Source of the DNA: an uncultured Planctomycetales bacterium
Lineage (GTDB): Bacteria; Omnitrophota; Gorgyraeia; Zapsychrales; Fredricksoniimonadaceae
Assembly: GCA_964520655.1 (NCBI GenBank)
Contig: CAZFNI010000004.1
Location: 25,628-89,627, forward strand
Length of the DNA: 64,000 nucleotides
Direction: 5' to 3'
In this document: positions 3,506 to 49,792 of the stretch, one piece after another
Numbering within the stretch: position 1 is the first letter of the stretch
Layout: the number at the start of each line of letters is the position of its first letter
Program-made: the position numbers and the translations under genes
The notes under the pieces: generated by a model
The model's database searches: none
Seen by the model: the letters and a program-made list of their open reading frames with translations, nothing else
What the model was told of the DNA's origin: nothing

Positions 3506-6500
3506 ATGTGTTACTCTATAAGCATGCTAAGGAATCTCTTCAGCTACATTATTGTTTTGTGCCTTTTGCCATGTCCGCAAATACATGCCCAGGAGCTGGT
3601 TTTGCCTGTGCCGGGCACCATGGTGTCTTTAAGCCCTGCCTTTAACGCCCCTGTCCTTAAAGGCCTTAAGGTTCATGCGGAGGATCCATTCCGCTTCGAT
3701 TTCATCATTGATCCTGGCAATAACGCGGGGACTCAAGTCAAAGAAGAATCTGCCAAGCTCATCAAATATTTCCTGGCCAGTTTGACCACGCCGGAGAAGG
3801 AACTGTGGGTTAACTTAAGTCCGTATGAAAAAGAACGCATTGTGCCGTCAAGTTTTGGCCAGACAGCAATGGGCCGCGATCTCTTAGCGCAGGATTATAT
3901 TTTAAAGCAATTGACCGCCAGTTTGGTTTATCCCGAAGGGGAGATCGGCAAGAAATTCTGGAAACGGGTCTATGAGATCTCTGCCAATAAGAATGTGCCG
4001 GTCAATACCTTTAACAAAGTTTGGATCGTACCAGGCAAAGCGGTGGTGTATGAGAATGCCAAGGCAGGAACGGCGTATGTCGTTGAGTCCAGACTTAAAG
4101 TCATGACGGAGCAGGATTATTTGGCGACGAGTAAGCATGAAGCAACGGGGCCTGCCGCCGCATCACCTGTTTCGTCCTCGCGCCACCCATCCCCCGGTGG
4201 GGTAGCAGATACAAAAACGACATTTCCCGTGGCGCTGCGGTCAAAACAGGCTGACGCGGCGTCACCCGTTGCTGGCGTATCACAAGTTGTCCGCGAAACC
4301 GAAGGTTCCCTGCAGTCTAATAAAGTGTTGCAGGACATTGTCATCCCGCAGCTGACCAAGGAGGTCAATGAGGGCCAGAGCTTCACTCAGCTGCGCCAGG
4401 TCTATAATGCGCTGATCTTAGCGACGTGGTACAAACAGAAGATCAAGGACAGTATCTTGACCCGTGTGTATGCGGATAAAAACAAGATCAAGGGCACGGA
4501 ATACGCCGATGCCTTAAACGCGCAGGCCATTTATCAGCGCTACCTTCAGGCTTTTAAGAAGGGCGCGTATAATTACATCAAAGAGGAACAGGACCCGGTG
4601 ACGATGCAGATGATCCCGAGGAAGTATTTTTCCGGTGGGGTGCAGCTGGAGTTCGGTAAAGGGATTGACTCTGCCATGGTCGTGACAACAACAAAGCCTG
4701 CGAATATTCGGGGTGACTATTGGGTTGTCGAGAGCGGTTTAAAGAGAATAAAGTTCAATGACAAAGCCATGACGGTTCCTTTGATGAATCCGGATGAATT
4801 CAATGCTTTGATAACACAGATAAATCAAAAGAGACTCACGGTGAATGTCGAAGTTCCTCCCCGTGAACAAGGTGGATTTAATGACGGTGATCGATTTGTG
4901 GTTGCTTATAAATTGGAAGGCCTTGCGTTATTACCGGAAGGGTTGACAAGTAAGATCCCTCAGGGACAGAATTTTGGTGTGAGGATCAGGATGCGCACGA
5001 CGACACCGGCCGAATATAACCCGGTGTTTGAGACCAGGGGATTGTTGTCAGCTTATTACAGGATGGACACAGGGATGATAGAGTTTTTGGTAAAGGGGCA
5101 TCTTACAGAGAGAGAATTAAAAGAAGCCAGGACATCGATCAACCATGAATTTACTCACGCCTTGGTCCTTCATCCGATGACCTCCCAGCAAGTCATGACG
5201 TTAGAAGATCATAATGCTATTTTGACGGGGATGGGTTTTAGGCTTGGGTTTATTGAGAATGGTTTGATCAAGATCCAGGATCGTTTTAATTCTTTTGAGG
5301 AGGTCATCAAGTGGCAATCTGATGGCAAGCGTTTTTATATCAGAGGCAATAACGTGTTGTTGGATGCCAATAATGTCAAGCGATTGAATTATTTCAAACA
5401 GTTCGAACGCAGATTCAATGCCCAGGGGTTAACGATCGAGCCTTACAGCGACAATGCGTCCAATCATTTTATTTCGTCTCCTCAAGAGGTGATCGCATAT
5501 GCAGCCAGTGAAAGCCAGTCTGCGCTTGAGAAAATGTTGAAAGATGTAGGGTATAAGGACAGGGTCACGCAAGTGTACCAGGCTTTGATGCAGATCCTGC
5601 ATAGGAATCTGTTAAGAAGCGCAGAGCCGGTTGGGCGGCATACGGACGGATCGTTAGTGTATGAAATGTATACACCGAGCGCTTTAGACAGTGAGGACGG
5701 ATATGTCACTCAATTAGCAACGGCGCAGTACCTTGGGGTAAGTGACAAGGCCCAGATCTCCAAAGCCGCGTTGGCGGTAGGTGCGGTGGTATTTGCTGGG
5801 GTTTCAGGGGGTATTTATTGGTTAAAGTCGTATCAGGATGAGATGGATGCGATCAAAGCGCGGCCAAGGGTCACGCTGGCAAAGACCAATCCGTTTTATG
5901 ATTCTATGGCGAGAGCCTTAGTAAGAACCCTACCTGGAAGTTCTGAGGAGGCTTCCCTTGCGGGCAGCTCTGTCGATCCCAAGCGTGCTAGTGTGAACAT
6001 CGGCGTGATAGCGGGAGAGAACATCATTCCCAGGGAGTTAAAAATATTGGCGTATAAATATTTGTTTACGACCATGCTCATGCGAATGCCGTCATTGAAT
6101 GTGGATGATATGTTGAGATCTATTGAATCTCAGGATAGTAAGGGATATTTACGAACTGTCGAGAATAAGGAATCTTTTCTGAAATTCTTAAAGGGGCTTA
6201 GTGCGGTCATCACGGCACAGGGTTATATCGGGAAGCTCGAGCTCATTAGCGGCTATGATCTAGGTGCGGTTAAACAACAATGGTTAGCGCTGCATCAAGG
6301 TGAGATCGAAAAGAGTTTAACGAATGTTGAGAATACAAAACAGTTTGATGATCTTCTTGTTGAAGGAATTGCAACGGATGGGGTGATGACTCCAGAAGCT
6401 TTCTTAAAAAGGTTAAAGGACCTGGAGGAACAAGTTAAAGATAATGCCGCGAAGCGCAACATCGCTTTATCATATCCGGAAACCGTCAGATTGATGCGTG

Positions 6501-7003
6501 TGCTTGATCAAGGTGGTTCCATTGATGCTATATTTGAGGCGGGTCAAGCCGGCGTTGATTTTTTACTATCTCAATCATCATTGGGTTCTAGATATTGGGA
6601 TGCAGATAGTTTTGCGCTTTCTTTTAAAGCAGGTGCGGCAAGTGTTTCATCTGTGCGGGATACATTAACAGGAGAGGGCATCCTTCCTACGATCAGAGAA
6701 ATTGCCTTGTTCTTAAAGTTGAGGGCACAAGGGCTGCCCACGGAGGAGATTATATCGAACATCAAAGGACAATTGGCCAAAGAGGAGAAGAAAATTACAG
6801 GAGACCAGGCTCAAACGGCGAAAAAAGGTGGTATTGATTTTAATGCTGACAAAATGGACCTGGAAACCCGCAATCAGGGCGGAGCGATCACCTTTAAGGT
6901 CGATCCCGCGCAATTGAAAGAACTGCAGGACGCTGCCGGCTTTGCCGCGGTCATCATCAGTGTTTCGCCTCTAAAAGACCTTCGCTTATTCCTCGGTATT
7001 TAA
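3506..7003 (+). CDS. Giant secreted protein, paralog 1 (1165 aa): signal peptide + conserved ~370-aa N-domain + unique middle + conserved ~60-aa C-terminal module
   Basis: Signal peptide 'MLRNLFSYIIVLCLLPCPQIHA' (an alternative ATG lies at 3524). The N-domain 'QELVLPVPGTMVSLSPAF...IPRKYFSGGV' is shared with the ORFs at 26159 and 46538. The C-terminus 'GGIDFNADKMDLETRNQGGAITFKVDPAQLKELQDAAGFAAVIISVSPLKDLRLFLGI' is shared with 26159..34462. Confidence 0.8.
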   Translation: MCYSISMLRNLFSYIIVLCLLPCPQIHAQELVLPVPGTMVSLSPAFNAPVLKGLKVHAEDPFRFDFIIDPGNNAGTQVKEESAKLIKYFLASLTTPEKELWVNLSPYEKERIVPSSFGQTAMGRDLLAQDYILKQLTASLVYPEGEIGKKFWKRVYEISANKNVPVNTFNKVWIVPGKAVVYENAKAGTAYVVESRLKVMTEQDYLATSKHEATGPAAASPVSSSRHPSPGGVADTKTTFPVALRSKQADAASPVAGVSQVVRETEGSLQSNKVLQDIVIPQLTKEVNEGQSFTQLRQVYNALILATWYKQKIKDSILTRVYADKNKIKGTEYADALNAQAIYQRYLQAFKKGAYNYIKEEQDPVTMQMIPRKYFSGGVQLEFGKGIDSAMVVTTTKPANIRGDYWVVESGLKRIKFNDKAMTVPLMNPDEFNALITQINQKRLTVNVEVPPREQGGFNDGDRFVVAYKLEGLALLPEGLTSKIPQGQNFGVRIRMRTTTPAEYNPVFETRGLLSAYYRMDTGMIEFLVKGHLTERELKEARTSINHEFTHALVLHPMTSQQVMTLEDHNAILTGMGFRLGFIENGLIKIQDRFNSFEEVIKWQSDGKRFYIRGNNVLLDANNVKRLNYFKQFERRFNAQGLTIEPYSDNASNHFISSPQEVIAYAASESQSALEKMLKDVGYKDRVTQVYQALMQILHRNLLRSAEPVGRHTDGSLVYEMYTPSALDSEDGYVTQLATAQYLGVSDKAQISKAALAVGAVVFAGVSGGIYWLKSYQDEMDAIKARPRVTLAKTNPFYDSMARALVRTLPGSSEEASLAGSSVDPKRASVNIGVIAGENIIPRELKILAYKYLFTTMLMRMPSLNVDDMLRSIESQDSKGYLRTVENKESFLKFLKGLSAVITAQGYIGKLELISGYDLGAVKQQWLALHQGEIEKSLTNVENTKQFDDLLVEGIATDGVMTPEAFLKRLKDLEEQVKDNAAKRNIALSYPETVRLMRVLDQGGSIDAIFEAGQAGVDFLLSQSSLGSRYWDADSFALSFKAGAASVSSVRDTLTGEGILPTIREIALFLKLRAQGLPTEEIISNIKGQLAKEEKKITGDQAQTAKKGGIDFNADKMDLETRNQGGAITFKVDPAQLKELQDAAGFAAVIISVSPLKDLRLFLGI

Positions 7004-7226
7004 TTCAGATTCCTGGGGTGCTTTTTGCCGTGCGTGGCATGGAACCCGCAGGGAAACGGGATGCTTCTTTCTAGATGCTCACCCCCAGCCCCCACAACAG
7101 ATGCACGTTGGTTGAATGCAATGCTTGAGGTTAATCGTTGAGTATGAATTAATAGGGTGGCATCTGGTGGGGGACGTTCGCATCAGTAAAGAACATCCCG
7201 TATCCCTGCCAGGACCCGTTTCATGC

Positions 7227-26158: not shown

Positions 26159-29100
26159 GTGAAACCCCTTCAACATAGACTTATATCCTTCTTGGCGGCT
26201 ATTGCTTTTGCCGCAACGCTTATTGTCCCCATCCCAAGCCGGGCGGAATTGTTACTACCGGCTCCCGGAACGCTTGTTACTTTAAGTCCTGCCGCTGATC
26301 TTCCCATCTTAAAAGGTATCAAGGTCCATGCTGATAACCCCTTGAAGTTTGAGTTTATTCTGGATAATGGAAGAGAAACAGGTGAGGTGGCGTTAAAGGA
26401 ACAATCCAGCAAACTCATCAAATATTTCCTGGCGAGCTTAACCACGCCTGAGCAGGAGATGTGGGTCAACTTAAGCCCGTATGAAAAAGACCGCATCGTG
26501 CCGGATAGTTTTGGTCAGACCGAAATGGGCCGCGACCTATTGGCTCAGGATTATTTACTCAAGCAGATCACCGCGAGTTTAGTCTATCCGGAAGGGGATA
26601 TTGGCAAACAGTTCTGGAAGAGAGTGTATGAGTTATCGGGGAATAAGAATGTTCCGGTCAACACGTTTAATAAAGTGTGGATCGTCCCGGACAAAGCGGT
26701 GGTGTATGAGAATGCGAAGAATGGTACAGCGTATGTCGTTGAATCATCATTAAAGGTATTAACAGAACAGGATTATCTAGCCCAGGATAAGAATGCGGCG
26801 GGTGGCGCCCAAGCTGTTCGTTTCGCCCGCAGCTTAAGGGGGACAATGGCTTTATCTTCTGCTACCCCACGGGGGGATGGGTTAAGCGAGGACGAAACGA
26901 ATAGTTGGGCGACAGGACCCGCTCATGCTATCCGGGATCTTGTCATCCCTCAACTGACCAAAGAGGTCAATGAAGGTAAGAATTTTGCGCAGCTGCGTCA
27001 GGTTTACAATTCTCTCATTCTTGCCACATGGTACAAGAAGAAGATCAAGGACAGCATCCTCTCCCAGGTTTATGCCGATAAGAACAAGGTAGACGGTATC
27101 ACCATCGATGACCCCAAAGAGAAAGAACGGATATACGCACAGTATTTGGAAGCCTTCAAGAAGGGGGCGTATAACTATATTAAAGAGGAGCGTGATCCCT
27201 TAAGCGGGCAGGTGCTGCCCAGGAAGTATTTTTCCGGCGGGGTAAAATTTGGCGATTTGGCGATGACGACAAGCGCCAAGCCTCCTCAGCAAAATGTTCA
27301 TCAAATTGCGTCTGTTGTAGAAGTAAGGATCGATCAGTTAGGGGCTGGTTTGGATAACGCAATGACTGCGGCTTCTTTGCAGGGGGAGAGGAAAGATCCT
27401 CTTGTTTTAAAAGGCAAGATTGTTGAAAGAGATACATTTAATCATATTTCTTCCATGGTTCGCAGCAGCAGAGAGGCGACCCCTCGTGTATGGGAGATTT
27501 CTGATTTTGAGAAAGTTTTGTCTCATCCACTTCAACTTAAGCAGTTTGTTGATTTGCCTCTAAGCGTTGCGGCTGAAGTGATGATCGTGTATACGGATGA
27601 CGGACGATGGCTTTTTTGTGCAGCTGGGGTAGAGCCTGGTGTTTCCCTTGACCCTTTTAAGGAATTAATTGACCAAAAAAAGATCGTGTTCCATATGCAT
27701 TCGCATCCATATATTCACGAAAATAGAACGTTTGGGGGCAATACATCGGAATATCCATCATTGGTTGATTTAGAATTCTTTGAATATTACGGCGGCATCA
27801 GTGGACATCTATCGAGAGAGGGGTTGACCATTACCAGAATGCCGCCAACGAGATTGTCAGGTGATAAAAGAGGTGGTACCGATTTCCATTATGAATTTAA
27901 ACGTTGGGTGTGGAAGGAATATCCGTGGCTTGATTCTCCATTGGGATTAGGAAAAGAATCTAAAAAGGCCTACAAGGATTACCTTAGATCCATGGATGTG
28001 GATATTAATATTGTGCCTTGGGATGAGGGGGCTTTAAGATCTGCTTTGTCTGGAGCAATCAACCAGGCCATGATGACCAAAGCACGAATCCTTCAAGACC
28101 CCTTACAACCCGCCAGGGATCGCCGTATTCCGTTAGATAAAGAAGCGTTAAAACCGTTGTTAAAAGGGAAAACGATCCTGATCACTGGTGGGGGGGGCTC
28201 TATTGGTTCCGCTTTAGCTTTTGAGATCTTGAAAGAGTTCGGGGATGATATAGAAAAAATTGTTTTGTTTGGTCAAGGCTCAGAAAATCTTGCTAAGGTA
28301 GTGGCGCAAATAAAGGGGATGGAAAGATCCGCGCAGAAAGTTATTGTTGTTACGGGTGATGTGAGCCGTTTAGATCAAATTGAGCCTGTTTTCAAAGAAT
28401 ATAGTCCACAGATCGTTTATCATTTAGCTGCTGAGACATCCCCGGTTATTACTCAAGCAGATCCATCCCGTGCCATCGCAGTGAACGTTTTTGGAACACA
28501 CAATATGGTCGCTTTGGCGGATCGGTATAGCACGGAACATTTTATTTACACATCTTCCAGCAAAGCCACAAATGTTTTACCAGATAGTGTCTTAGGACAA
28601 ACCAAGAGGCTGGCAGAATATCAAGTCCAGTTAAAAGCCAGGAATAGCCGCACCCAATTTGGGATCGTCCGTTTCGTGCATACATTAGATACTAGGGCAA
28701 GCTTGGTCATGAAGATATTCCAAGACAAGATCGACCGCCATGAGCCATTGCCGGTTATGCGGGAGGCGGCTACGTATTTTCAGAATACGCATGAAGCGGT
28801 TAATCTTGCGTTGAATGTCCTTTTACTGTCCCGTAAAGGCGAGATATTTGCCCTGTCGGATGTTGGTCGACCGGTAAAGATTGAGGACATTGCCCGATAT
28901 TTATTATCGCAAAATGGCAAAGGCGATGAGCAGATCAAATTCATTCCCTTAAGAGAAGGGGAAGTTGTTCCTGTTTTTCAACATGAAGATGCAGGAAGGG
29001 CTGTCATAGCGGCGCAAGAGTACAAGGGTGTTCTGGTGGAGAATAAAGCGATCGCAGAAGGTGTGCCGCTTGCGATTGATGGTGCGGTGTTGTCCGAAGG

Positions 29101-32100
29101 GTTGGAAAGGTTGCATAGTAATTTAGGGAACACTGCGGTGGATTTAAAGGCGGAGCTTGTTGAATTGATGAAAGATGTTTATGGATCCATTGATCCTGCT
29201 CAGAAGGCATCAGAAGATGAAAGGCAGGCCTATGTAACAATGTTTAAGGATAAACTATTTGGAAGCAAGAACGGGTTTAACATTACGCTCAAGGGTGGAC
29301 AACGGCTTCCTGTTGTCCTTACTCAATCACAACAACATTTTGTCAGCCATGATCCATATGCGCTGGATATTGTATTGTCTCCTGAGTTTGAAGATAAGGG
29401 CGTATTAGAACAATCATTTCCTGGTTTGGCCTTTTTATATGATTTTACACCGAAAGATGATTTCGCTCCGCCGCAGGGATCCATCGGTCAGGTGGGGGTT
29501 AATATGATCTTCCCTCGAGTGACAATGAAGGAACTATTGGCTCTTGCTAAGGATCCGGACGCTTTTTATGAGTTCAGGATGAATCTTCCCAGCCGGATAT
29601 CCTATGGGGCGATCTATAAGGGGGAACTGGATCTTGATGAGCATCAAGCGAGAATGAAAGAATTTTTTCAGGAGAATTATGAAAAGGTCAGGGAATTATT
29701 TGACAAAATGTATCATCAATCCCCGATCTTGGTGATCACCTATAATCAAGCCAGTGGCGCTCTAAGAAGTTCTTCGAAAAATGGGCGCATGTTTCCAGAA
29801 TGGATTGAGGCCGTGCATCGCCATATATTGGAAGCAGCCTCGTCAATGGGGATTAAGGATATCTATGCCATTCCCTCTGATTTGGCGGCGTTTTTGTATC
29901 CTGGGTTGAAGAATGAAGATGCGCTGCGTTTAATGTATGACCGTCCGTATCAGAGTAAGCCGTATTGGAGGCAGGAGTATGTAAAAGATGATCAGCTGTT
30001 TGGTCAGATCAAAATGGAATATAGGTTAAGCGGTTCATACTTTTGGAAATATCATGCCAATTCCGGTGAAGATCATGCTCAAATATCTGACCCGACGTTG
30101 TTGCTAAACACTAATCAAAAGATATTCAAAAACGGTGTCCGTTTAGTTGAATATCCAAGTAGCGATGATGTGACCTACTATGCCGCGCGCCGCATGGCGG
30201 ATGTTCTGATCACCAATAATGCATTAAAGCGCCAGACGCGGATGATAACACCTACCGGTGGAACATATGAACCGGTGTATGCAGCGTTTGTCCGGATCGT
30301 TAAGGAAGAGGGGATTGATTGTTCGAATTTGATCACATATAACATGGATGAATATTATGTGGGACAAGATGGTGCCAAAGGCCGTTGGGATCAGCATCCG
30401 CAAAGTTACCGTCAGTTCATGGAAAAACATTTATACGCTCCGCTGCGGGAGATCGGATCAGGATGGAATAATGACAATGGGCATGTCTTAAACGGCAATG
30501 CCGTGGACATCGATGCAGAGGTGAGGGCTTATGAGCAGGCGGTGCGTGAGGGAGGGATCGATATCGCTTTTGGCGGCATCGGACGTGATGGGCACATTGC
30601 CTTTAATGAACCGATCATTACTGTTAGTGCGTTTGGTTCCATTGAAGTTGAGAAAGCCAGGGACTTTAATGAGTTTTTATTAGACATCCCTCCGGAGAAA
30701 CAATTAGATCTGTTGGAGGAGGTTTTAACAAAACATTGGGCCGCTCGGCGCTCATCTGTTTTTGCAGAGTATTTAAGAATGAATCTAGTTGTCCCTTATT
30801 TCCCCGCAACGTTGCCGGATGATCTAGCTGCATTTATGGAAAAATTGTTGCGTCAGCCGGTCGTGATCTATTTTAAACATTTAGATGATGATTTTAAAAA
30901 GGTTTTGGAAAAACGTGCCGCTAACTTAGCATCCATGATGGGGGGAGGCTCTGTTACTGTTAAGGAATTAAAAGATCCGGCGGATATGCCGACCCGGGTT
31001 GTTCACCTGGCATTGCCGACATTGTTTGATAACAGCCGTTTTCTTAAAGAGGACATCAAGAACATGCGTGATATCCCGTTGTCCGCATTAACAGTCGGCC
31101 CAGGAACGTTGCGTCATGCTAAAGAAATCGTTGTTGCAGCAACCGGAGCGAAAAAAGCAGAGGCTGTCACCGATGCAGCGTTAAATAAACCAACTCCTGA
31201 TGTTTCGGCGTCCCTGCTTCAAGGGCATCAGAACCTCACGTTTGTTTTTGATACATCTGTAGCAGAGAGCTCAAGGCCGTTGCAACAGGCGTACGCAAAA
31301 GAGGCGAAGATCCTTGATGATCAGCGGTCTCTTCCTCCTTCAGCAGATGCTGCTATGAGGGCGGAGGGTATTTCAGCCAGAGAGAGAGCTGACAAGGCTT
31401 TATATCAAGCCTTGGAGGGAGCTTTGTTCGAATCAGCGAATATGGAACTTCAAGTCAAGGGGTTTGGCAGGGTGCCGCTGAGATTTTCTAAGGCAAGGTT
31501 CCACATGCCAGGGCCATTATTTGCCGATGAGTATCCGTTGGATGTGGTGGTTAGTCCAAAAGAACCGTACACTCAAGAAAAAGTACGTAAGGAAATACTC
31601 CCTCCAATGGATTTTCTTTTTGATGGAAAAGACCCAGGGGCATTTTATCCTCCCAAAGGTTCTTTTGGTCAGATAGGCATTAGTTTGGTGTCTCTGGATC
31701 ATTCGACCGCCTTATTGATCAACTACAATCAGGCAAGCAACGGGTTAAGATCATCTGGCAAGGACGGCCGTCCATTCATTGGTTGGGTTGAAGCGGCCCA
31801 TGAACGTATCATTGAAGCTGCGCGCTCTGTTGGGATACAGCAGATCTATGCGTTGCCAAGCAAGGCGGCCGGTAAGCTCTATTATGGACTTGAGAGCGCT
31901 GATGCTGTTAATCTGGCCTATGAAAAACCTTATCAGAATAAAGAACACTGGAAGGAAGTTGTTGTTGATGAGGAGTTAGCCAGAAAGATCAAGGTTGGAT
32001 TTAATGATCATGAACAGCCGTTCTTATGGAAATATGATCTCGGAACATTAAAAGAAACCCCAGAACTTATAAATGAAGAAGGAGTATCAGCGGATTGGCT

Positions 32101-34462
32101 TCGTGGGATGTTTGAACTTGACTCAGAGGGAAGAATGTCTTTTGCGTCAGGCTTTAACGGTTTGCCGTTATTGTTTGACTTATATTATGTCCGACATGGG
32201 CAGACAAAAGGCAATCTTGAGGGGATCTTACAGGGGCAGCAGGAAACAGCCAACAGTCAGTTGACGGACGAAGGTATTTCACAGGCCAAACAAGCAGCGG
32301 TAAAACTGTTTGATCAATTGGGGCTGGCAAAGTCAAAACCTTCCCGCTCATTGGTCATTGTGACTAGCCAACTTAACCGGACCAAAGAAACGGCGGATTT
32401 CTTTGTCCAGATGCTTAAGGATCATGGTGTTCCATTTGAGATCGTCGATGATCAGTTACAGCGATTGATCAATGAATTAAATGTTGGCGCGATGGGCAAT
32501 AAGAAAGAGTTGATGCCGCAGGAGCAGGATCTATTGAAGCGATACATGGCAGCCAATGCGAAGGAAAAATTCCCTCGAGGGGAAAGTTTTGTAGATCTGA
32601 TCCTTCGCGCAAGGCAATGGCTGTTGAAAATGAATGAACAGTATCAAGGTCGCACGGTCGTTGTGTTTGGTCACGGTAATCAAAGCGGCGCACTGCGGGC
32701 TTTATTGGGCGACCGGACAATCCTTAATGGAGAGGGAAGCGTCGACTGGATCAATAATAAACTTCCTAATGCATTGCCGGTGCAGTTAAGTTCCGGATTT
32801 AAGGCTGATGCGGCAATGCGTGCGGAAGATATTTTTGATTTCGAGAAAGATGAATTGAAAGTGGTTGTGTTAGAACGGAAATTACAGGAAGTGATGTTGA
32901 AGGTCAACAATGGAGGAAGGGCGATCATTGTCGGTGGGACAAGATATTTTAATAGCGGACAACGTAAAGATGTCGATGTTTTGTTAAAAGGGATGGATAT
33001 GTTCAGTCAAGGCGGCAGCTTTGTGGCCGCCTTAAAAGAAATGCTGCTTGCCTATGAGGGTGTGCGTATTGATGATGTGATCGATCTAAGAAAGCGCAGG
33101 GTGATTATAAAATTCACTCTTCTTGGGGAGAATCATCAGAGTCGTTCATTATCTATTGATCTGATCGGATTCTTCGATGGAGATGATGCTGCGTTGGTCA
33201 GAAGGCTTAAAGAAGTCGCGGTGAATGGTTTTCGCATGCATATCTCTAACGCGGAGTATGAGGATAAGTTTAATGAGCTGGCAGTAAAAGATTATTTTGA
33301 GGTTGAGTATTACTTAGGCGACCGCACGGTTTATGAGCAAATGCTTGGCAAGTTCAAAGATCCCGTAACAATAGGAGAATTTTATAAACCGGATGGTCTG
33401 ATGGCCAACAGGATGATGGAGCTAAGGTCTAAAGTGCAGGGTCTGACTGATCAACAGATCGCTGAGGCAGTCGATGCGAAATTGGCTGTCTCCGCTGACA
33501 TGGCCCAGCGTGTAGGAGAACCACTGGCGCCTTTCAAGGGATTTAATTTATCGTCACAGCAAATGAGCCGCTTGGCGGATTTTTTAGGTGTTCCTCAGGA
33601 TGTTCTAGAAAACGAGAATTTAGTGCCTCAGCATCCGGAAAGGCCGTCATTAACCTCGCGACAGACTTTTAAATATACCTATTTAGGGAAGGAGTTTTAT
33701 GTAAAGTCTGGTCCGGATTACGAAACATTATTGGAAGAAGCAAAAACAGCCAACGTTGTCCATAATAGCGGTTTGTCAACTCAGGCAGCGGTCGTTGGGA
33801 ATAATATGCTGTTGCTCCCAGAAGAACTGCGCGATAAATATGCGGATCCAGCGATCGCTAGAACTAAGGGATTTATGCTTGTAACAAAAGGAGCCCAGGG
33901 AGAAAGCTGGTTCTCGATATTAAAAAAAGGGAATAAGATCACTTATCAGATGGTCGTGGATTTGGCAAGAGCCATGGGAAGGCTTCATGCCCAAGGATTA
34001 GCGCATAATGATCTATACAGTCAAACAGAAGGTTTTAAAACGGAACATATCTTCCAAACAAGTCAAGGTGTTGAGTTTATTGATTTTGGATTGACTTCGA
34101 GGCTTTGGCCTCAAATCTTTCATGAATCAGAAAAAAAAGCTGTTTGGCAGGCATTAAGCCGTATGGTTGATGCACAAACAGGCGGCGAGACATTAAAAAA
34201 AGTCTTTGATGACGCCTATCTTCAAGGATTTCAAGATAGTGAGCGTAGGCCTGTTTCTGGAGATGCGGCCATGGCAAAAGGCGGGATTGATCTTAATGCA
34301 GGGAAATTGGACCTTCAAACCCGCCATGAGGGGAAGGGATTGGAGTTTAAGACTGATCCGGCCTTGCTGAAAAGGCTTCAAAATGCCTCTGGATTTACCC
34401 CTGTGATCATCAATATCCGCCCCTTAGGGGATTTGAACGTCTTTCTAGGTGTCAGCGGTTAA
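26159..34462 (+). CDS. Giant secreted multi-domain protein, paralog 2 (2767 aa): conserved N-domain, CapD-like dehydratase, NagB-like, His-phosphatase, kinase-like, conserved C-module
   Basis: GTG start. Signal peptide 'MKPLQHRLISFLAAIAFAATLIVPIPSRA'. The N-domain is shared with 3506 and 46538. 'KGKTILITGGGGSIGSALAFEIL'+'TKRLAEY' indicate a CapD/WbpM-type NAD Rossmann domain. 'ITPTGGTYEP...NMDEYYVG...GGIGRDGHIAFNEP' indicates NagB. 'LYYVRHGQTKGN' with a downstream 'VVFGHGN' indicates a histidine phosphatase. 'LAHNDL...IDFGL' indicates a protein-kinase-like domain. The C-module reads 'GGIDLNAGKLDLQTRHEG...DLNVFLGVSG'. Confidence 0.8.
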   Translation: MKPLQHRLISFLAAIAFAATLIVPIPSRAELLLPAPGTLVTLSPAADLPILKGIKVHADNPLKFEFILDNGRETGEVALKEQSSKLIKYFLASLTTPEQEMWVNLSPYEKDRIVPDSFGQTEMGRDLLAQDYLLKQITASLVYPEGDIGKQFWKRVYELSGNKNVPVNTFNKVWIVPDKAVVYENAKNGTAYVVESSLKVLTEQDYLAQDKNAAGGAQAVRFARSLRGTMALSSATPRGDGLSEDETNSWATGPAHAIRDLVIPQLTKEVNEGKNFAQLRQVYNSLILATWYKKKIKDSILSQVYADKNKVDGITIDDPKEKERIYAQYLEAFKKGAYNYIKEERDPLSGQVLPRKYFSGGVKFGDLAMTTSAKPPQQNVHQIASVVEVRIDQLGAGLDNAMTAASLQGERKDPLVLKGKIVERDTFNHISSMVRSSREATPRVWEISDFEKVLSHPLQLKQFVDLPLSVAAEVMIVYTDDGRWLFCAAGVEPGVSLDPFKELIDQKKIVFHMHSHPYIHENRTFGGNTSEYPSLVDLEFFEYYGGISGHLSREGLTITRMPPTRLSGDKRGGTDFHYEFKRWVWKEYPWLDSPLGLGKESKKAYKDYLRSMDVDINIVPWDEGALRSALSGAINQAMMTKARILQDPLQPARDRRIPLDKEALKPLLKGKTILITGGGGSIGSALAFEILKEFGDDIEKIVLFGQGSENLAKVVAQIKGMERSAQKVIVVTGDVSRLDQIEPVFKEYSPQIVYHLAAETSPVITQADPSRAIAVNVFGTHNMVALADRYSTEHFIYTSSSKATNVLPDSVLGQTKRLAEYQVQLKARNSRTQFGIVRFVHTLDTRASLVMKIFQDKIDRHEPLPVMREAATYFQNTHEAVNLALNVLLLSRKGEIFALSDVGRPVKIEDIARYLLSQNGKGDEQIKFIPLREGEVVPVFQHEDAGRAVIAAQEYKGVLVENKAIAEGVPLAIDGAVLSEGLERLHSNLGNTAVDLKAELVELMKDVYGSIDPAQKASEDERQAYVTMFKDKLFGSKNGFNITLKGGQRLPVVLTQSQQHFVSHDPYALDIVLSPEFEDKGVLEQSFPGLAFLYDFTPKDDFAPPQGSIGQVGVNMIFPRVTMKELLALAKDPDAFYEFRMNLPSRISYGAIYKGELDLDEHQARMKEFFQENYEKVRELFDKMYHQSPILVITYNQASGALRSSSKNGRMFPEWIEAVHRHILEAASSMGIKDIYAIPSDLAAFLYPGLKNEDALRLMYDRPYQSKPYWRQEYVKDDQLFGQIKMEYRLSGSYFWKYHANSGEDHAQISDPTLLLNTNQKIFKNGVRLVEYPSSDDVTYYAARRMADVLITNNALKRQTRMITPTGGTYEPVYAAFVRIVKEEGIDCSNLITYNMDEYYVGQDGAKGRWDQHPQSYRQFMEKHLYAPLREIGSGWNNDNGHVLNGNAVDIDAEVRAYEQAVREGGIDIAFGGIGRDGHIAFNEPIITVSAFGSIEVEKARDFNEFLLDIPPEKQLDLLEEVLTKHWAARRSSVFAEYLRMNLVVPYFPATLPDDLAAFMEKLLRQPVVIYFKHLDDDFKKVLEKRAANLASMMGGGSVTVKELKDPADMPTRVVHLALPTLFDNSRFLKEDIKNMRDIPLSALTVGPGTLRHAKEIVVAATGAKKAEAVTDAALNKPTPDVSASLLQGHQNLTFVFDTSVAESSRPLQQAYAKEAKILDDQRSLPPSADAAMRAEGISARERADKALYQALEGALFESANMELQVKGFGRVPLRFSKARFHMPGPLFADEYPLDVVVSPKEPYTQEKVRKEILPPMDFLFDGKDPGAFYPPKGSFGQIGISLVSLDHSTALLINYNQASNGLRSSGKDGRPFIGWVEAAHERIIEAARSVGIQQIYALPSKAAGKLYYGLESADAVNLAYEKPYQNKEHWKEVVVDEELARKIKVGFNDHEQPFLWKYDLGTLKETPELINEEGVSADWLRGMFELDSEGRMSFASGFNGLPLLFDLYYVRHGQTKGNLEGILQGQQETANSQLTDEGISQAKQAAVKLFDQLGLAKSKPSRSLVIVTSQLNRTKETADFFVQMLKDHGVPFEIVDDQLQRLINELNVGAMGNKKELMPQEQDLLKRYMAANAKEKFPRGESFVDLILRARQWLLKMNEQYQGRTVVVFGHGNQSGALRALLGDRTILNGEGSVDWINNKLPNALPVQLSSGFKADAAMRAEDIFDFEKDELKVVVLERKLQEVMLKVNNGGRAIIVGGTRYFNSGQRKDVDVLLKGMDMFSQGGSFVAALKEMLLAYEGVRIDDVIDLRKRRVIIKFTLLGENHQSRSLSIDLIGFFDGDDAALVRRLKEVAVNGFRMHISNAEYEDKFNELAVKDYFEVEYYLGDRTVYEQMLGKFKDPVTIGEFYKPDGLMANRMMELRSKVQGLTDQQIAEAVDAKLAVSADMAQRVGEPLAPFKGFNLSSQQMSRLADFLGVPQDVLENENLVPQHPERPSLTSRQTFKYTYLGKEFYVKSGPDYETLLEEAKTANVVHNSGLSTQAAVVGNNMLLLPEELRDKYADPAIARTKGFMLVTKGAQGESWFSILKKGNKITYQMVVDLARAMGRLHAQGLAHNDLYSQTEGFKTEHIFQTSQGVEFIDFGLTSRLWPQIFHESEKKAVWQALSRMVDAQTGGETLKKVFDDAYLQGFQDSERRPVSGDAAMAKGGIDLNAGKLDLQTRHEGKGLEFKTDPALLKRLQNASGFTPVIINIRPLGDLNVFLGVSG

Positions 34463-34514: not shown

Positions 34515-35534
34515 ATGAATAAATACCATACTATTATAAATAAATTCAAAGGCAAGCGTCTGCTTGTCATCGGCGACTTGGTGCTGGATCAGTATATTAA
34601 GGGTTCGGTCAGCCGGATTTCGCCGGAAGCCCCTGTCCCTATTGTGGTTCAGGAAGATTCGTTCTTTACGCCTGGCGGGGCGGCCAATGTGGCCAATAAC
34701 TTAAGCAGTTTGGGTGCGGATGTGACCTTGGTGGGCAAGGTGGGAGATGATATTGAAGGAGCGGTCTTAAAGAAGGAATTGACTCGCCGCCATATCCACA
34801 CCAATGGTGTTTTTATTGATCCAGACATGGAAACCATTTTCAAGACCCGCATCATTGCCCAGCAGCAGCAAGTGGTGCGCGTGGACCGGGAAACACTGGG
34901 TCTTTCCAACGACAAGATGTTTGCCGGGCATATTTTGCCGTTCTTGCAGAAACATTTTACCAGTTACGACGCCGTGATCGTTTCGGATTACGGTTAAGTG
35001 ATCGTGGATATTAAGCTGATGGCTTCCATCCATGACATGGCGCTTAAACATAAGATTCCCGTCGTAGTTGATCCTAAATTCGAAGATCTGCGGGCTTACG
35101 GTGTGGTTAGCAGCATCACCCCTAACAAGAAAGAAGCAGAAGCGGCATTGAAGGCGATCACTGACAGCGCCCGAAAAGCCTTTGGTATCATTTCGGTCAA
35201 GCTCGATAGAAAAGAAGATATTGAAAAGAATGGTCAGGGCTTACTTGCTTATTTAGGGATTGATTCGCTGCTAATTACTTTGGGCGAGCAGGGGATGTAT
35301 TTATTTGAGCATAATCGCAAGCCGTTCCCTATTGCCACCCGCGCTCAGGAAGTTTTTGATGTCAGCGGTGCTGGGGATACGGTTATTTCGGTTTTTGCCT
35401 TGTGTTTGGCGGCCAAAGCCAATCGGCGCGCGGCGGCGGATATCGCCAATTACGCTGCCGGGGTTGTTGTTGGTAAGATGGGGGCTGTCGCGATCGAATT
35501 GGATGAGTTAAAGCGGGCGGTTAAAAAGGCATGA
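34515..35534 (+). pseudogene. hldA: D-glycero-beta-D-manno-heptose-7-phosphate kinase (RfaE domain I / HldA-like, ribokinase family) interrupted by an in-frame TAA at 34995-34997
   Basis: The two adjacent ORFs (34515..34997 and 34998..35534) are in the same frame and align end-to-end with one kinase: '...VSDYG*VIVD...' versus E. coli HldE domain I '...VLSDYAKGAL...' (recalled from memory, not checked). The second half carries the ribokinase-family motif 'DVSGAGDT'. A GTG codon immediately follows the stop. Confidence 0.55.
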
Positions 35535-46537: not shown

Positions 46538-49500
46538 ATGTTAGGAAAAAAACATCCCATCTTTCATTTAATGCTGGCGGCGGTTCTGGCCATGGGTTTT
46601 GATCCCTCTCTGGTCTTGGCCGAAGAGCTTGTTGTTCCGGCAATGCCCAAGGCTGGGACGATGGTCTTTTTAAGTCCGGCGTTTCAACCGGCAACTGTCA
46701 TGGGCATGACCATTTCTCCGAAGGATCCGTTTCAATTTGATTTTTTGATACAGCGGGGAGATGGGGTTTATGATGAAACATCGAAACAGCAGGAATACCG
46801 CAAACTTATCAAATATTTTCTGGCCGCGTTAACGGTCCCCGACCATGATCAGTGGGTCAATCTTTCTCCCTATGAACAAAACCGCATTATCGAAGAACCA
46901 TTCGGCCGGACAGAAATGGGTCGGGACCTTTTGGCTCAAGATTATTTGCTCAAGCAGATCACTTCATCCTTGATGTACCCCGGAGCAGGCCTGGGTCAGG
47001 CATTTTGGGACAGGGTCTATGCGCAGGCAGGCAGTGCTTTGGGCAAGAGGGATATACCGGTCAATGCTTTCCATAAAGTATGGATCGTTCCCGACGATGT
47101 TGTTATCTACGAAAATCGTCAGGGCGCGGTCATTTTAAAGAGTCATTTGAAGATTATGCTTGAAGAAGATTACTTATCTTCTCTGAAGCATAAAGCGGGT
47201 GACGCCCAAGCTCATTTTATTGCCCGCAGCCCCAGGGGGACAATGGCTTCATCTCCTGCTACCCCACGGGGGGATGGGTGGGGCGAGGACAAGAAAATGA
47301 GTTTGGCGGCAGGACCCGCTCTTGCTAGCCAGGTTATGCGTGACATTATTCTCCCTGAACTTGAGAAAGAAGTGAATGAGGGCAAGAACTTCGCGCCGCT
47401 GCGCCAGATCGTCAGCGCGATGCTGATGGCCACCTGGTATAAAAAAGCGTTAAAAGGATCGCTGCTGGGTCAAGTTTACGCGGATAAAGGCAAAGTCGGC
47501 GGTGTATCCAGCGACCCAAAGAATATTGAAAAGATCTACGCACAATACCTGGATGCGTTTAAGAAGGGGGTCTTTAATCTGATCAAAGAGGATCAAGACC
47601 AGCTGACCCATCAGGTGATCCCCAGGAAATATTTTGCCGGCGGTTTCAGCCGTGACGAGGCGATGGTCACCTATGTGGGAAGCGCTTCTGGTGATGAAGT
47701 GGACCTAGGGGATGGTAGAGAGCGTTTAATGGCGATTGCTGCGAGAAAACATGTGCGGCTTAGCGAAGTGTTGAGAGCCAGTCCGCGCATATTGCCAGAG
47801 CTGATCGTTGAGACGCTGCTGTATGGATTATTTTGGAAGGTCATCGATCGCGCGCGGGTGAATATGGATGAATCGAGAGGCGGAGCCATGATCATTGTTG
47901 GTAAGCCAAAAGAGCCGGTTGTTGCGCCTTCTTCTTCGATCACGACATTGTCAGGTGACACGCGATCAAGATTCTCTCAGCTGGTTAATCTTAATATTGA
48001 AGAAGCGTTCCATACAACTGGGACAGGCAGTCTCCATGAGCTTTTAGGGGTCAAGTCAGAAGCGGCGATCGGTTATCCCGCACTCGAGGAGCTTGTCATT
48101 TTACCGAATAAGATAGTCGGGGGGTATAAGATCTCGGCACAACCTCAAGCCAATATTTTTCTAACGATCAATGATGCGAAGTATGTATTTGCTTATAATG
48201 AACTTTCCACCGAGGATAAAAGGCAGTATGTGCTGTTCGCTGATGATCGGGAGATCGGCCGTTTCGATTTTTCTGTCCCGCTTGTCATCCGAAAAGACCT
48301 TATCCCGGCAGAACTTGTGCCGCTGTTGATCCAGGGGGATAGTCCTGTCCTTAAGGAACATCCTCAAAATAAGAAAGAGCTCTACGCGATATTGGATTTT
48401 GAAGGACTGATGAGGCTTATTTTAGAGAATGAAAAGTCTCTGATAAAGCTAAAAGAGCATATGCGTCTGCAGGATGTGTCCTTTACAGATACCCGTGGCG
48501 TTGTGGTGAATTTAACGATCGCGGTGCGCAGGGGCAAAGACGGAGGCGCTGATCTGTATTTGTTCCCGCGCAATGGAGAGAAATTGCCGCCTATTTGGCA
48601 GCTGGCTGTGCCGGCCTTCGATGCGGCGATGTCTGTTGATGGTGATGAGGTCACCCAGGCGATTCATGGACGTTTCGGCGAAATGATCTTAGAGTCTTTA
48701 CGCTTGCCGGGCAAGGTGAATATCGGGGATCGTTCATACGAGGCTGTTGCTGGAGGGAAAGGGGTGCAGCTTAAGGGGCTCAACGATTCCCGGGAGATCC
48801 GTCCCATTCTCTCTTCGGATGCTCTGTTGAGATATGGTTTTGTAAAAAGAGCGGTCAATGCGCTGCAGGCCAAAGGTCTGGTGATCAAAGATGATGACAA
48901 CAATATCGCGTTGGATCCGGATATTCAATTGCGAGATTTCAATGATGTTTTTAATGTGTCATTTACCCAGGAAGCCAGGCGGCTTAATTTGGATGCGGAT
49001 GAGATCAGGGGGATGCTCCTTGGGACCATTGGTTATGTGCTCAAGGTCCAGGAACGTAATGTCCAGGGGTATTCCGGCGTATGTGTGGTCTTAAGCAAAG
49101 ACGGTGTTTCGCTGCGCATCCTGACATTTGCCGGCAGTGAACCTGCGGTCTCTTTTTCCAGGACGAGACCTCCGCAGGAGATCATCGTTTCCCAGATGGC
49201 AGCAGGGCTGAAAGCCATTAAGGCCAGGGAAGGGCGGTACATCGGGGTTGTGAATTCAAAAGGCTCTGTGAGGTATTTTGATGAAAAAGAAGCGGAAGGT
49301 TTTGCGGATATTTATGCCGCCAGGATGATCATCCTCGAGAGAAACTTTAACTGGAAAGTTACGCGTGAACAGATCATGAAAATGATCTTTAAGGGTGAGA
49401 TCATCCCGTTCCAATTCACCGTTGCCAAAGACGGTTCTGTGGCATTTTCCAATGTGGGTAAACAGTCGATATTCTCTAAGAATGTGACAAGTATGGCGAA

Positions 49501-49792
49501 GGAGGGGGAGCTGCTGGCTGCTTTACTTAACCAGGATGCTGCGCAGGCCTCTAATGCGGATGATCTAGGGGGTATTGACCTGGATCCCGCCCACTTTAAT
49601 ATGCGTATCAAGCGTGATGCCGAAGGGGTTGTTTTACCTGCGGCGCTGCAGGACTTGAAATATTTTGAGAATATCCAGGGGCTGGTCCCTAATATTCTTG
49701 AGATCAAACCCGCCGAGGATGTTCCTATCCTTCGTGAGATCCAGCAAGAGATCAAGGTTGGCGTACAAACGCCTCATATCCCCGCGAACTGA
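46538..49792 (+). CDS. Giant secreted protein, paralog 3 (1084 aa): signal peptide + conserved N-domain + unique middle + divergent C-terminal module
   Basis: Signal peptide 'MLGKKHPIFHLMLAAVLAMGFDPSLVLA'. The N-domain 'EELVVPAMPKAGTMVFLSPAF...IPRKYFAGGF' is collinear with the other two paralogs. The C-terminus 'LGGIDLDPAHFNMRIKRDAEGVVLPAALQDLKYFENIQGLVPNILEIKP' is a divergent copy of the C-module. Confidence 0.8.
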   Translation: MLGKKHPIFHLMLAAVLAMGFDPSLVLAEELVVPAMPKAGTMVFLSPAFQPATVMGMTISPKDPFQFDFLIQRGDGVYDETSKQQEYRKLIKYFLAALTVPDHDQWVNLSPYEQNRIIEEPFGRTEMGRDLLAQDYLLKQITSSLMYPGAGLGQAFWDRVYAQAGSALGKRDIPVNAFHKVWIVPDDVVIYENRQGAVILKSHLKIMLEEDYLSSLKHKAGDAQAHFIARSPRGTMASSPATPRGDGWGEDKKMSLAAGPALASQVMRDIILPELEKEVNEGKNFAPLRQIVSAMLMATWYKKALKGSLLGQVYADKGKVGGVSSDPKNIEKIYAQYLDAFKKGVFNLIKEDQDQLTHQVIPRKYFAGGFSRDEAMVTYVGSASGDEVDLGDGRERLMAIAARKHVRLSEVLRASPRILPELIVETLLYGLFWKVIDRARVNMDESRGGAMIIVGKPKEPVVAPSSSITTLSGDTRSRFSQLVNLNIEEAFHTTGTGSLHELLGVKSEAAIGYPALEELVILPNKIVGGYKISAQPQANIFLTINDAKYVFAYNELSTEDKRQYVLFADDREIGRFDFSVPLVIRKDLIPAELVPLLIQGDSPVLKEHPQNKKELYAILDFEGLMRLILENEKSLIKLKEHMRLQDVSFTDTRGVVVNLTIAVRRGKDGGADLYLFPRNGEKLPPIWQLAVPAFDAAMSVDGDEVTQAIHGRFGEMILESLRLPGKVNIGDRSYEAVAGGKGVQLKGLNDSREIRPILSSDALLRYGFVKRAVNALQAKGLVIKDDDNNIALDPDIQLRDFNDVFNVSFTQEARRLNLDADEIRGMLLGTIGYVLKVQERNVQGYSGVCVVLSKDGVSLRILTFAGSEPAVSFSRTRPPQEIIVSQMAAGLKAIKAREGRYIGVVNSKGSVRYFDEKEAEGFADIYAARMIILERNFNWKVTREQIMKMIFKGEIIPFQFTVAKDGSVAFSNVGKQSIFSKNVTSMAKEGELLAALLNQDAAQASNADDLGGIDLDPAHFNMRIKRDAEGVVLPAALQDLKYFENIQGLVPNILEIKPAEDVPILREIQQEIKVGVQTPHIPAN

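Follow-up and report, generated by a model that had tools for sequence, protein, structure and literature searches.

A structured palindromic element carried in frame and in both orientations by Omnitrophota genes

Three related genes and a reversed segment in G1

The DNA analysed here is a stretch of 64,000 nt from an uncultured bacterium of the Omnitrophota (contig CAZFNI010000004.1 of assembly GCA_964520655.1, positions 25,628 to 89,627 of the forward strand), referred to below as the window. It contains three genes, G1, G2 and G3, which share an N-terminal domain (N-domain); their coordinates are collected in Table 1 together with those of the other features. Within the N-domain, G1 carries a segment that runs opposite to its counterparts in G2 and G3. 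Rather than being ordinary coding sequence that was inverted locally, this segment forms a structured palindromic element, complete in itself, and it is probably (with a probability of about 0.62) one copy of a family of such elements that is analogous to the Rickettsia palindromic elements (RPEs) and tolerated in disordered loops.

The reversal had been noticed in a sequence-only reading, which described a precise, in-frame flip of about 135 bp (45 codons) in G1, and sequence comparison confirms it. The G1 copy is the reverse complement of the copies in G2 and G3, and in frame; local alignment with G2 and G3 gives the reverse complement of G1 scores of 75 and 87, respectively, and the forward strand only 21 and 17, through flanking codons. 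The 24-mer CTGCTACCCCACSGGGGGATGGGT occurs exactly three times in the window (0.00 expected from 100 shuffles), and a tblastn search with the G2 N-domain gives an independent reverse-strand match at 4281–4147 (48.9% identity, E 7.6e-6). Only the size needs refinement, as the homologous unit is 123 nt, or 41 codons. A covariance model, R1, built from seven copies of the element, scores 128.9 bits for the G1 copy, 154.1 for the G2 copy and 149.2 for the G3 copy.

Both the rightwards open reading frame (ORF) of G1, 3506..7003, and a minus-strand ORF at 4117..4386 stay open across the segment, as that reading had described, and the 9-bp inverted repeat that it saw bounding the segment is also real. 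The repeat is not peculiar to G1, however, since it is the basal stem of a hairpin that is found in the sense copies too; in G1 this basal helix, common to all copies, reaches 4141–4273. The proposal that the segment is open in both orientations stands for G1 and G2, whose ORFs a flip leaves open, but not for G3, where it gives a stop codon. Its placement in a loop of the N-domain is borne out by the AlphaFold model of G1, in which residues 218–260 have a predicted local distance difference test score (pLDDT) below 50 and lie between confident helices at 202–213 and 266–289.

Table 1. Coordinates of the host genes, element copies and related features; positions are those of the window unless another locus is named.
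Feature	Position	Strand	Description
G1 host gene	3506..7003	+	1165 aa; Omnitrophota-specific N-domain of ~400 aa
G2 host gene	26159..34462	+	2767 aa; N-domain fused to Polysacc_synt_2, Glucosamine_iso, His_Phos_1
G3 host gene	46538..49792	+	1084 aa; N-domain as in G1/G2
Element copy 1 (G1)	4146..4268	-	123 nt, antisense to host; host reading TGPAAASPVSSSRHPSPGGVADTKTTFPVALRSKQADAASPV
Element copy 2 (G2)	26799..26921	+	123 nt, sense; host reading AGGAQAVRFARSLRGTMALSSATPRGDGLSEDETNSWATGPA
Element copy 3 (G3)	47196..47318	+	123 nt, sense; host reading AGDAQAHFIARSPRGTMASSPATPRGDGWGEDKKMSLAAGPA
Left arm of 9-bp inverted repeat (G1)	4141..4149	.	AGCAACGGG; outer end of basal helix
Right arm of 9-bp inverted repeat (G1)	4265..4273	.	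CCCGTTGCT; opposite side of basal helix
24-nt apical core	4185..4208; 26859..26882; 47256..47279	-; +; +	CTGCTACCCCAC(S)GGGGGATGGGT; invariant
Terminal pair of the element (motif)			GCGGGTGGC...GACAGGACCCGC
Conserved C-terminal tail (G1; G2)	6830-7000; 34290-34459		Consensus GGID.NA.K.DL.TR..G....FK.DPA.LK.LQ.A.GF..VII...PL.DL..FLG
Other insert locus L009	10556-10687		
Other insert locus L010	10562-10663		
Other insert locus L011	10544-10642		

Fold and conservation of the element

All seven readable full copies of the element (the three above and the four described in the next section) are exactly 123 nt long, with zero indels. They fold as a long imperfect hairpin with a three-way junction, covarying stems and an asymmetric bulge at the termini, which are conserved (GCGGGTGRC ... 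GRCAGGMCCCGC), such that most copies start with GCGGGT and end with ACCCGC. The element strand of the G1 copy folds at -74.9 kcal/mol (z = -4.8). RNAalifold predicts 43 base pairs, 15 of them with compensatory changes. With nine sequences, 93.4% of cells are paired against 81.5% in shuffles, and 21 of the 43 pairs are double-changed against 9.4 +/- 1.9 in shuffles, none of 500 shuffles reaching as high; control structures with slid partners pair at about 45%. The stems vary in sequence between copies yet remain complementary, while the 24-nt apical core is identical in seven copies from five assemblies, including eight third-codon positions.

A codon alignment of G2 and G3 gives 76–94% identity within the element, with third-position identities of 0.73–1.0, against only 0.2–0.5 for the flanking N-domain codons, so that silent-site conservation is far higher in the element than in its host genes. 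The covarying stems, the invariant core and the high third-position identity together place the constraint on the nucleic acid rather than on the peptide, and the structure of the element is under selection. Of the six reading frames, s2 and a2 alone are open; they lie on opposite strands and share a codon phase. Every copy keeps open the frame that its host uses, and in five of the seven the unused partner frame is open as well. With a length that is a multiple of three and two open frames, the element can be translated in either orientation as a disordered insert of 41 residues, placed in a loop or a linker between domains. Read in the sense frame, the invariant core gives ATPRGDG, with an RGD motif in a disordered loop.

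The strand under selection can be approached through the wobble pairs, of which there are 26 G.T and 4 A.C on the element-sense strand, a bias that persists in the copies inserted antisense. Because the bias follows the element strand, selection seems to act on a single-stranded form of that strand rather than on the host mRNA, which suggests that the selected form is single-stranded DNA or RNA of the element-sense strand. A structured nucleic acid that benefits the host, either as an RNA processing, pausing or binding site or as an antisense small RNA, would also account for the strong covariation, the invariant core, the strand-specific wobble pairs and a conservation above that of the host silent sites. 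Such a role is nonetheless improbable, as the element lies in both orientations relative to the mRNA, its wobble bias tracks the element strand and not the mRNA strand, and most members of the host family either lack it or have unrelated inserts at the site; nor is there an Rfam match for the whole window at the gathering threshold, and an Rfam search of two copies with an E-value threshold returned only noise, at most 15.5 bits.

Copies in other genomes and a second host family

An exact scan for the core over species-representative genomes yielded four true loci (L001, L002, L003 and L004), and the same scan of metagenomes yielded a single locus that duplicates L004. In L001 and L004, which are N-domain homologs, the element is in sense, as in G2 and G3. 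The antisense copies are those of G1, of the N-domain homolog L002, where the frame is that of G1, and of L003, which comes from the same metagenome-assembled genome (MAG) as L001 but has the element in an unrelated gene, within the inter-domain linker of a 370-amino acid class II aldolase-SCP2 protein. Copies number three in the 64-kb window and two in MAG JANNCL01. R1 additionally detects two variant relatives, L008 at 76 bits and L007 at 68 bits, which lie antisense in an N-domain gene and an aldolase gene, respectively; they have the termini GCGGGTGGC...GACAGGMCCCGC in common and differ in their apical modules. A further exact core match, CTACCCCACAGGGGGATGGG, lies inside an intergenic inverted repeat at L005 5977–6086 in a betaproteobacterial MAG, where R1 scores 28 bits (E ~2e-4). 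It was rejected as a family member, being intergenic and without a significant fold (z -0.3 and -0.9), and is either a chance match or a very distant relative.

The existence of these copies bears on whether the reversal in G1 could be a local misassembly, an explanation that the sequence-only reading had raised and for which it can be said that palindromes may confuse assemblers. We consider this highly improbable, as the perfect repeat is 9 bp and well under assembler k-mer sizes, two contigs have the identical G1 protein on record, and antisense copies that preserve the ORF are present in four other assemblies; the G1 copy is also no chimera of those in G2 and G3, since it is only 66–76% identical to other copies.

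Among proteins, a profile of the sense peptide finds seven clusters in 1.84 billion representative sequences. The profile also weakly matches translated clustered regularly interspaced short palindromic repeat (CRISPR) arrays (P0248–P0258, with repeat peptide GLCSSTPRGDGN), probably through a shared C4/G4 hairpin. A relationship to CRISPR repeats was considered and set aside as coincidental: the peptide TPRGDG is common to both, but nothing is alike beyond the C4/G4 hairpin.

Insertion sites and turnover of the host linkers

Proteins with the N-domain form a large family, found almost exclusively in Candidatus Omnitrophota. The domain itself (3506–4800, 26159–27400 and 46538–47740 in G1, G2 and G3) has no Pfam match and is attached to very diverse C-terminal enzymes, and a comparison of its confident AlphaFold model with the PDB gave no fold match at E < 0.001. 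The element's site, flanked by EQDYL..KH and SQIVREIVIPELT, can be as short as about 12 residues or exceed 60, and holds several recurring insert peptides. The N-domain gene needs no hairpin at this site, since a short-linker homolog has no structure there (z = 0). The linker of the aldolase-SCP2 proteins is similarly variable, at 42–102 residues in the aligned window (counting 22 residues of conserved flank), and several insert peptide families are common to the two kinds of host. Five syntenic orthologous aldolase loci (L003, L007, L009, L010 and L011) have five different inserts in the same linker, all of which fold into hairpins, with shuffle z scores from -2.4 to -10.3.

We note that at least four further palindromic insert families lie in frame in the same two linkers among the homologs P0001–P0240, with example peptides including VILSEAKDL..SSATPQND, SFPNAFVGNP..FGDD, PTRGH..SPS.LPS..KAPQGN and RVAEGGAS..TRGQDP; some of the inserts look nested or tandem (e.g. 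P0148 and P0153). L002 has a second, unrelated insert (LPTKGHDFSRVPMPMAKQKSIEGESSPG, at 5132–5284) in another loop of the same N-domain gene, and a related peptide occupies the first loop in P0055. Just past the element in G1, at 4298–4336, there are 13 extra codons (TEGSLQSNKVLQD) that are not in G2 or G3; they contain a 6-bp inverted repeat (CCTGCA/TGCAGG) and may be the remnant of another insert or rearrangement.

Orientation of the element

The sequence-only reading had suggested that the segment might be a switch of the shufflon or phase-variation type, acting on ordinary coding sequence. This is not supported, as the segment belongs to a multi-locus element, its orientation agrees in the close comparisons given below, a flip would introduce a stop codon in G3, and no recombinase was found; the scan covered ORFs of at least 150 amino acids in the 64-kb window, among which there is no site-specific recombinase, transposase or reverse transcriptase. 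The comparison of orthologs and strains that it had proposed gives the same orientation in four close cases: the exact G1 protein, recorded on two contigs; G3 and a 99.4% identical protein; G2 and P0243, its closest element-bearing relative; and P0244 and its cluster partner P0261. As evidence for a fixed orientation these comparisons are weak, because assemblies display the majority orientation only. The hypothetical flipped G1 protein is absent from 15 billion proteins.

There is a version of the switch that takes the element itself into account, in which a recombinase encoded elsewhere in the genome would flip it between its terminal repeats and so produce two loop peptides. Intragenic invertons that recode proteins are on record (bioRxiv 10.1101/2023.03.11.532203), and here too inverted repeats bound the segment, G1 and G2 are open both ways and both orientations occur among homologs. 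With no invertase or tyrosine recombinase among the scanned ORFs, agreement in the four close comparisons, no flipped G1 protein and the stop codon in G3, we regard an active inverton as very unlikely.

Three further candidates were tried and rejected. Orientation is not simply tied to the direction of replication (as for IS608), since the GC skew is positive over the whole window, so that G1 and G2/G3 are on the same replichore with the element in opposite orientations. The segment is probably not the target of a diversity-generating retroelement, as the scanned ORFs of the window include no reverse transcriptase and the differences between copies are compensatory stem changes. G3 and L002 were considered as orthologs of opposite orientation, but they have only the N-domain in common and no inference was drawn from them.

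Mobility, vertical inheritance and the origin of the G1 copy

The element is discrete, occurs in both orientations, in two unrelated host families and in several genomes, and has a similarity that is decoupled from that of its hosts. The rank correlation between element and host identity is low (rho 0.30, p 0.19); P0244 and P0245, for example, have elements that are 88% identical in hosts that are 60% identical, and P0245 and P0247 have elements at 67% in hosts at 77%. The copy in the aldolase gene is 80–85% identical to the four sense copies in N-domain hosts, and for it to lie in an unrelated gene at that level the element must have passed from one gene to another at least once. The N-domain proteins most closely related to G1 and to G2 are without the element, and element-free proteins are as close to each of these two as G1 is to G2.

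These traits match those of elements that insert either way round and survive only where they are tolerated, as in Rickettsia, and it is this match that underlies the reading of the segment as a member of an RPE-like family. [quoted passage not shown]

Several observations weigh against this reading. The nine junction pairs inspected show no target-site duplication, and neither the window nor the flanking sequence retrieved around the element yielded a transposase. The family appears to be low in copy number, to judge from the seven sense-peptide clusters, all of which are of the N-domain family with the insert in the same loop, and the genome and metagenome scans yield only the four true loci and one duplicate. 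The start of the element follows K-[H/N]-x and varies by no more than one codon among all N-domain hosts, and random insertion is insufficient to explain this; it would need targeting of a site or hairpin, gene conversion between paralogs, or an ancient insertion followed by flips and losses. The antisense N-domain copies, G1 and L002, are the most divergent (66–76% identity), with a degraded P2 hairpin, and old flipped or decaying copies would show such divergence as well. Finally, the wobble-pair counts are partly shared by descent and so are not independent.

Some of the same observations fit a fossil inversion, the other possibility that the sequence-only reading had raised: an in-situ flip of the G1 copy is possible but is not the favoured reading. 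In its fuller form, the element would have entered once, before the paralogs diverged, and been flipped later and separately in G1, L002 and L008 by terminal-repeat recombination or by template-switching during replication. This would explain why the junction codon is the same in every N-domain host, sense or antisense, and why the antisense N-domain copies are the most diverged, as expected of old events; the perfect 9-bp terminal inverted repeat in G1 and the ORFs of G1 and G2, which survive a flip, are also in its favour. It fits poorly with the lack of correlation between element and host similarity, with the existence of element-free proteins that are no further from G1 and G2 than G1 is from G2, and with the transfer that the aldolase copy requires, and a perfect repeat of 7–9 bp is short for homologous recombination. 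On balance we hold a fossil inversion to be a tentative and rather unlikely account. Some sense copies have TCATGC on their right, and antisense copies have the host codons GCATGAA on their left, a pattern that is suggestive of in-situ inversion taking in flanking host bases but is inconsistent across copies.

A more speculative interpretation, and one that we think doubtful, is that the element represents an undescribed class of structure-guided mobile or invertible DNA, in which a folded single strand would be recognised by an enzyme through its asymmetric termini and 24-nt motif, would home to or replace linker hairpins, and would flip in situ. Were this so, Omnitrophota would be continually rewriting the disordered loops of surface-associated multi-enzyme proteins, one version of which includes RGD.

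Other features of the window and relatives

An imperfect hairpin of about 170 nt (7044–7212, -78.5 kcal/mol), with 25-nt arms at 7048–7072 and 7185–7209, occupies the gap between G1 and a convergent STT3-like gene, and could be either a palindromic element or a bidirectional terminator. A PfkB-family kinase at 34515–35534 is interrupted by one in-frame TAA (34995–34997, ..VSDYG*VIVD..), which leaves two adjacent ORFs; it could be a pseudogene, a sequencing error or a case of recoding. G1 and G2 have a conserved C-terminal tail of about 55–60 amino acids (Table 1), and tblastn places homologous tails close to where G2 and G3 end and at the C-terminus of a 1014-amino acid L009 protein (529–705). 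At L012 (1692–4309) a Transposase_mut (IS256-type) gene comes immediately after a truncated N-domain gene (350 amino acids), a paralog that would appear to have been broken by an insertion sequence.

Implications

In-frame palindromic elements are best known from Rickettsia, and the present element is an independent case from a free-living or epibiotic candidate phylum; our literature searches on Omnitrophota or Omnitrophica and palindromic or repeat elements brought up no title or abstract pointing to such elements. The structural signal is unusually clear, and the five inserts in one linker of syntenic orthologs form a natural series. Together they make it possible to test questions of how such elements are targeted to, or survive in, coding DNA, whether there is a single-stranded intermediate, and how disordered loops originate. 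There is also a warning for annotation, since repeat-element DNA, whichever way it is read, can be the source of low-complexity inserts in Omnitrophota proteins.

Comparison with known systems

Integron attC sites, the ends of IS200/IS605 elements, and repetitive extragenic palindromic (REP) sequences with their REP-associated tyrosine transposases (RAYTs) are imperfect hairpins in which structure is conserved over sequence, with asymmetric bulges and strand specificity. The element is like them in its conserved imperfect hairpin, asymmetric bulge and strand signal, but differs in being intragenic and translated, with no integrase or HUH transposase nearby. Neither of two specific assignments fits: the RYYYAAC / GTTRRRY cores of an integron attC site are absent from most copies and the window has no integrase, and the GTAG motif and size of REP/RAYT systems do not match.

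Intragenic invertons, as described in bioRxiv 10.1101/2023.03.11.532203, are comparable in that a segment bounded by repeats lies inside a coding sequence and can be coding in either orientation. Here, unlike in those cases, the segment is a multi-locus repeat element and not a locus-specific sequence, and no invertase is present in the scanned ORFs of the window.

MITEs such as Correia, ERIC and Nezha are, in the accounts of PMC10969869 and PMC2229807, sometimes intragenic with in-frame fusions. The element shares with them its small size, a non-autonomous nature, terminal inverted repeats (ends GCGGGT...ACCCGC, conserved in all copies) and a folded structure; it differs in that covariation extends along the entire stem and not the terminal repeats alone, in the lack of a target-site duplication, and in that no cognate insertion sequence with matching ends was found in the window.

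RPEs are short palindromic repeats that lie in frame in unrelated Rickettsia genes and are translated (Ogata et al. 2000, as cited in PMC10969869), and are described in PMC10969869 as without a recognised transposase. The Omnitrophota element is likewise a palindromic repeat of about 100–150 bp, inserted in frame in unrelated genes (here the N-domain and aldolase-SCP2 families), where it adds an extra peptide compatible with the fold. The likeness drawn here is one of features; Rfam gave no match. The element is set apart by its presence in Omnitrophota and not in Rickettsiales, by what appears to be a far lower copy number, by recurring, sense and antisense, at a single codon of a paralogous family, and perhaps by the three-way junction with an invariant 24-nt core and its strand-biased wobble pairs. 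By analogy, the closest known kind of element would be a Rickettsia palindromic element or an in-frame MITE.

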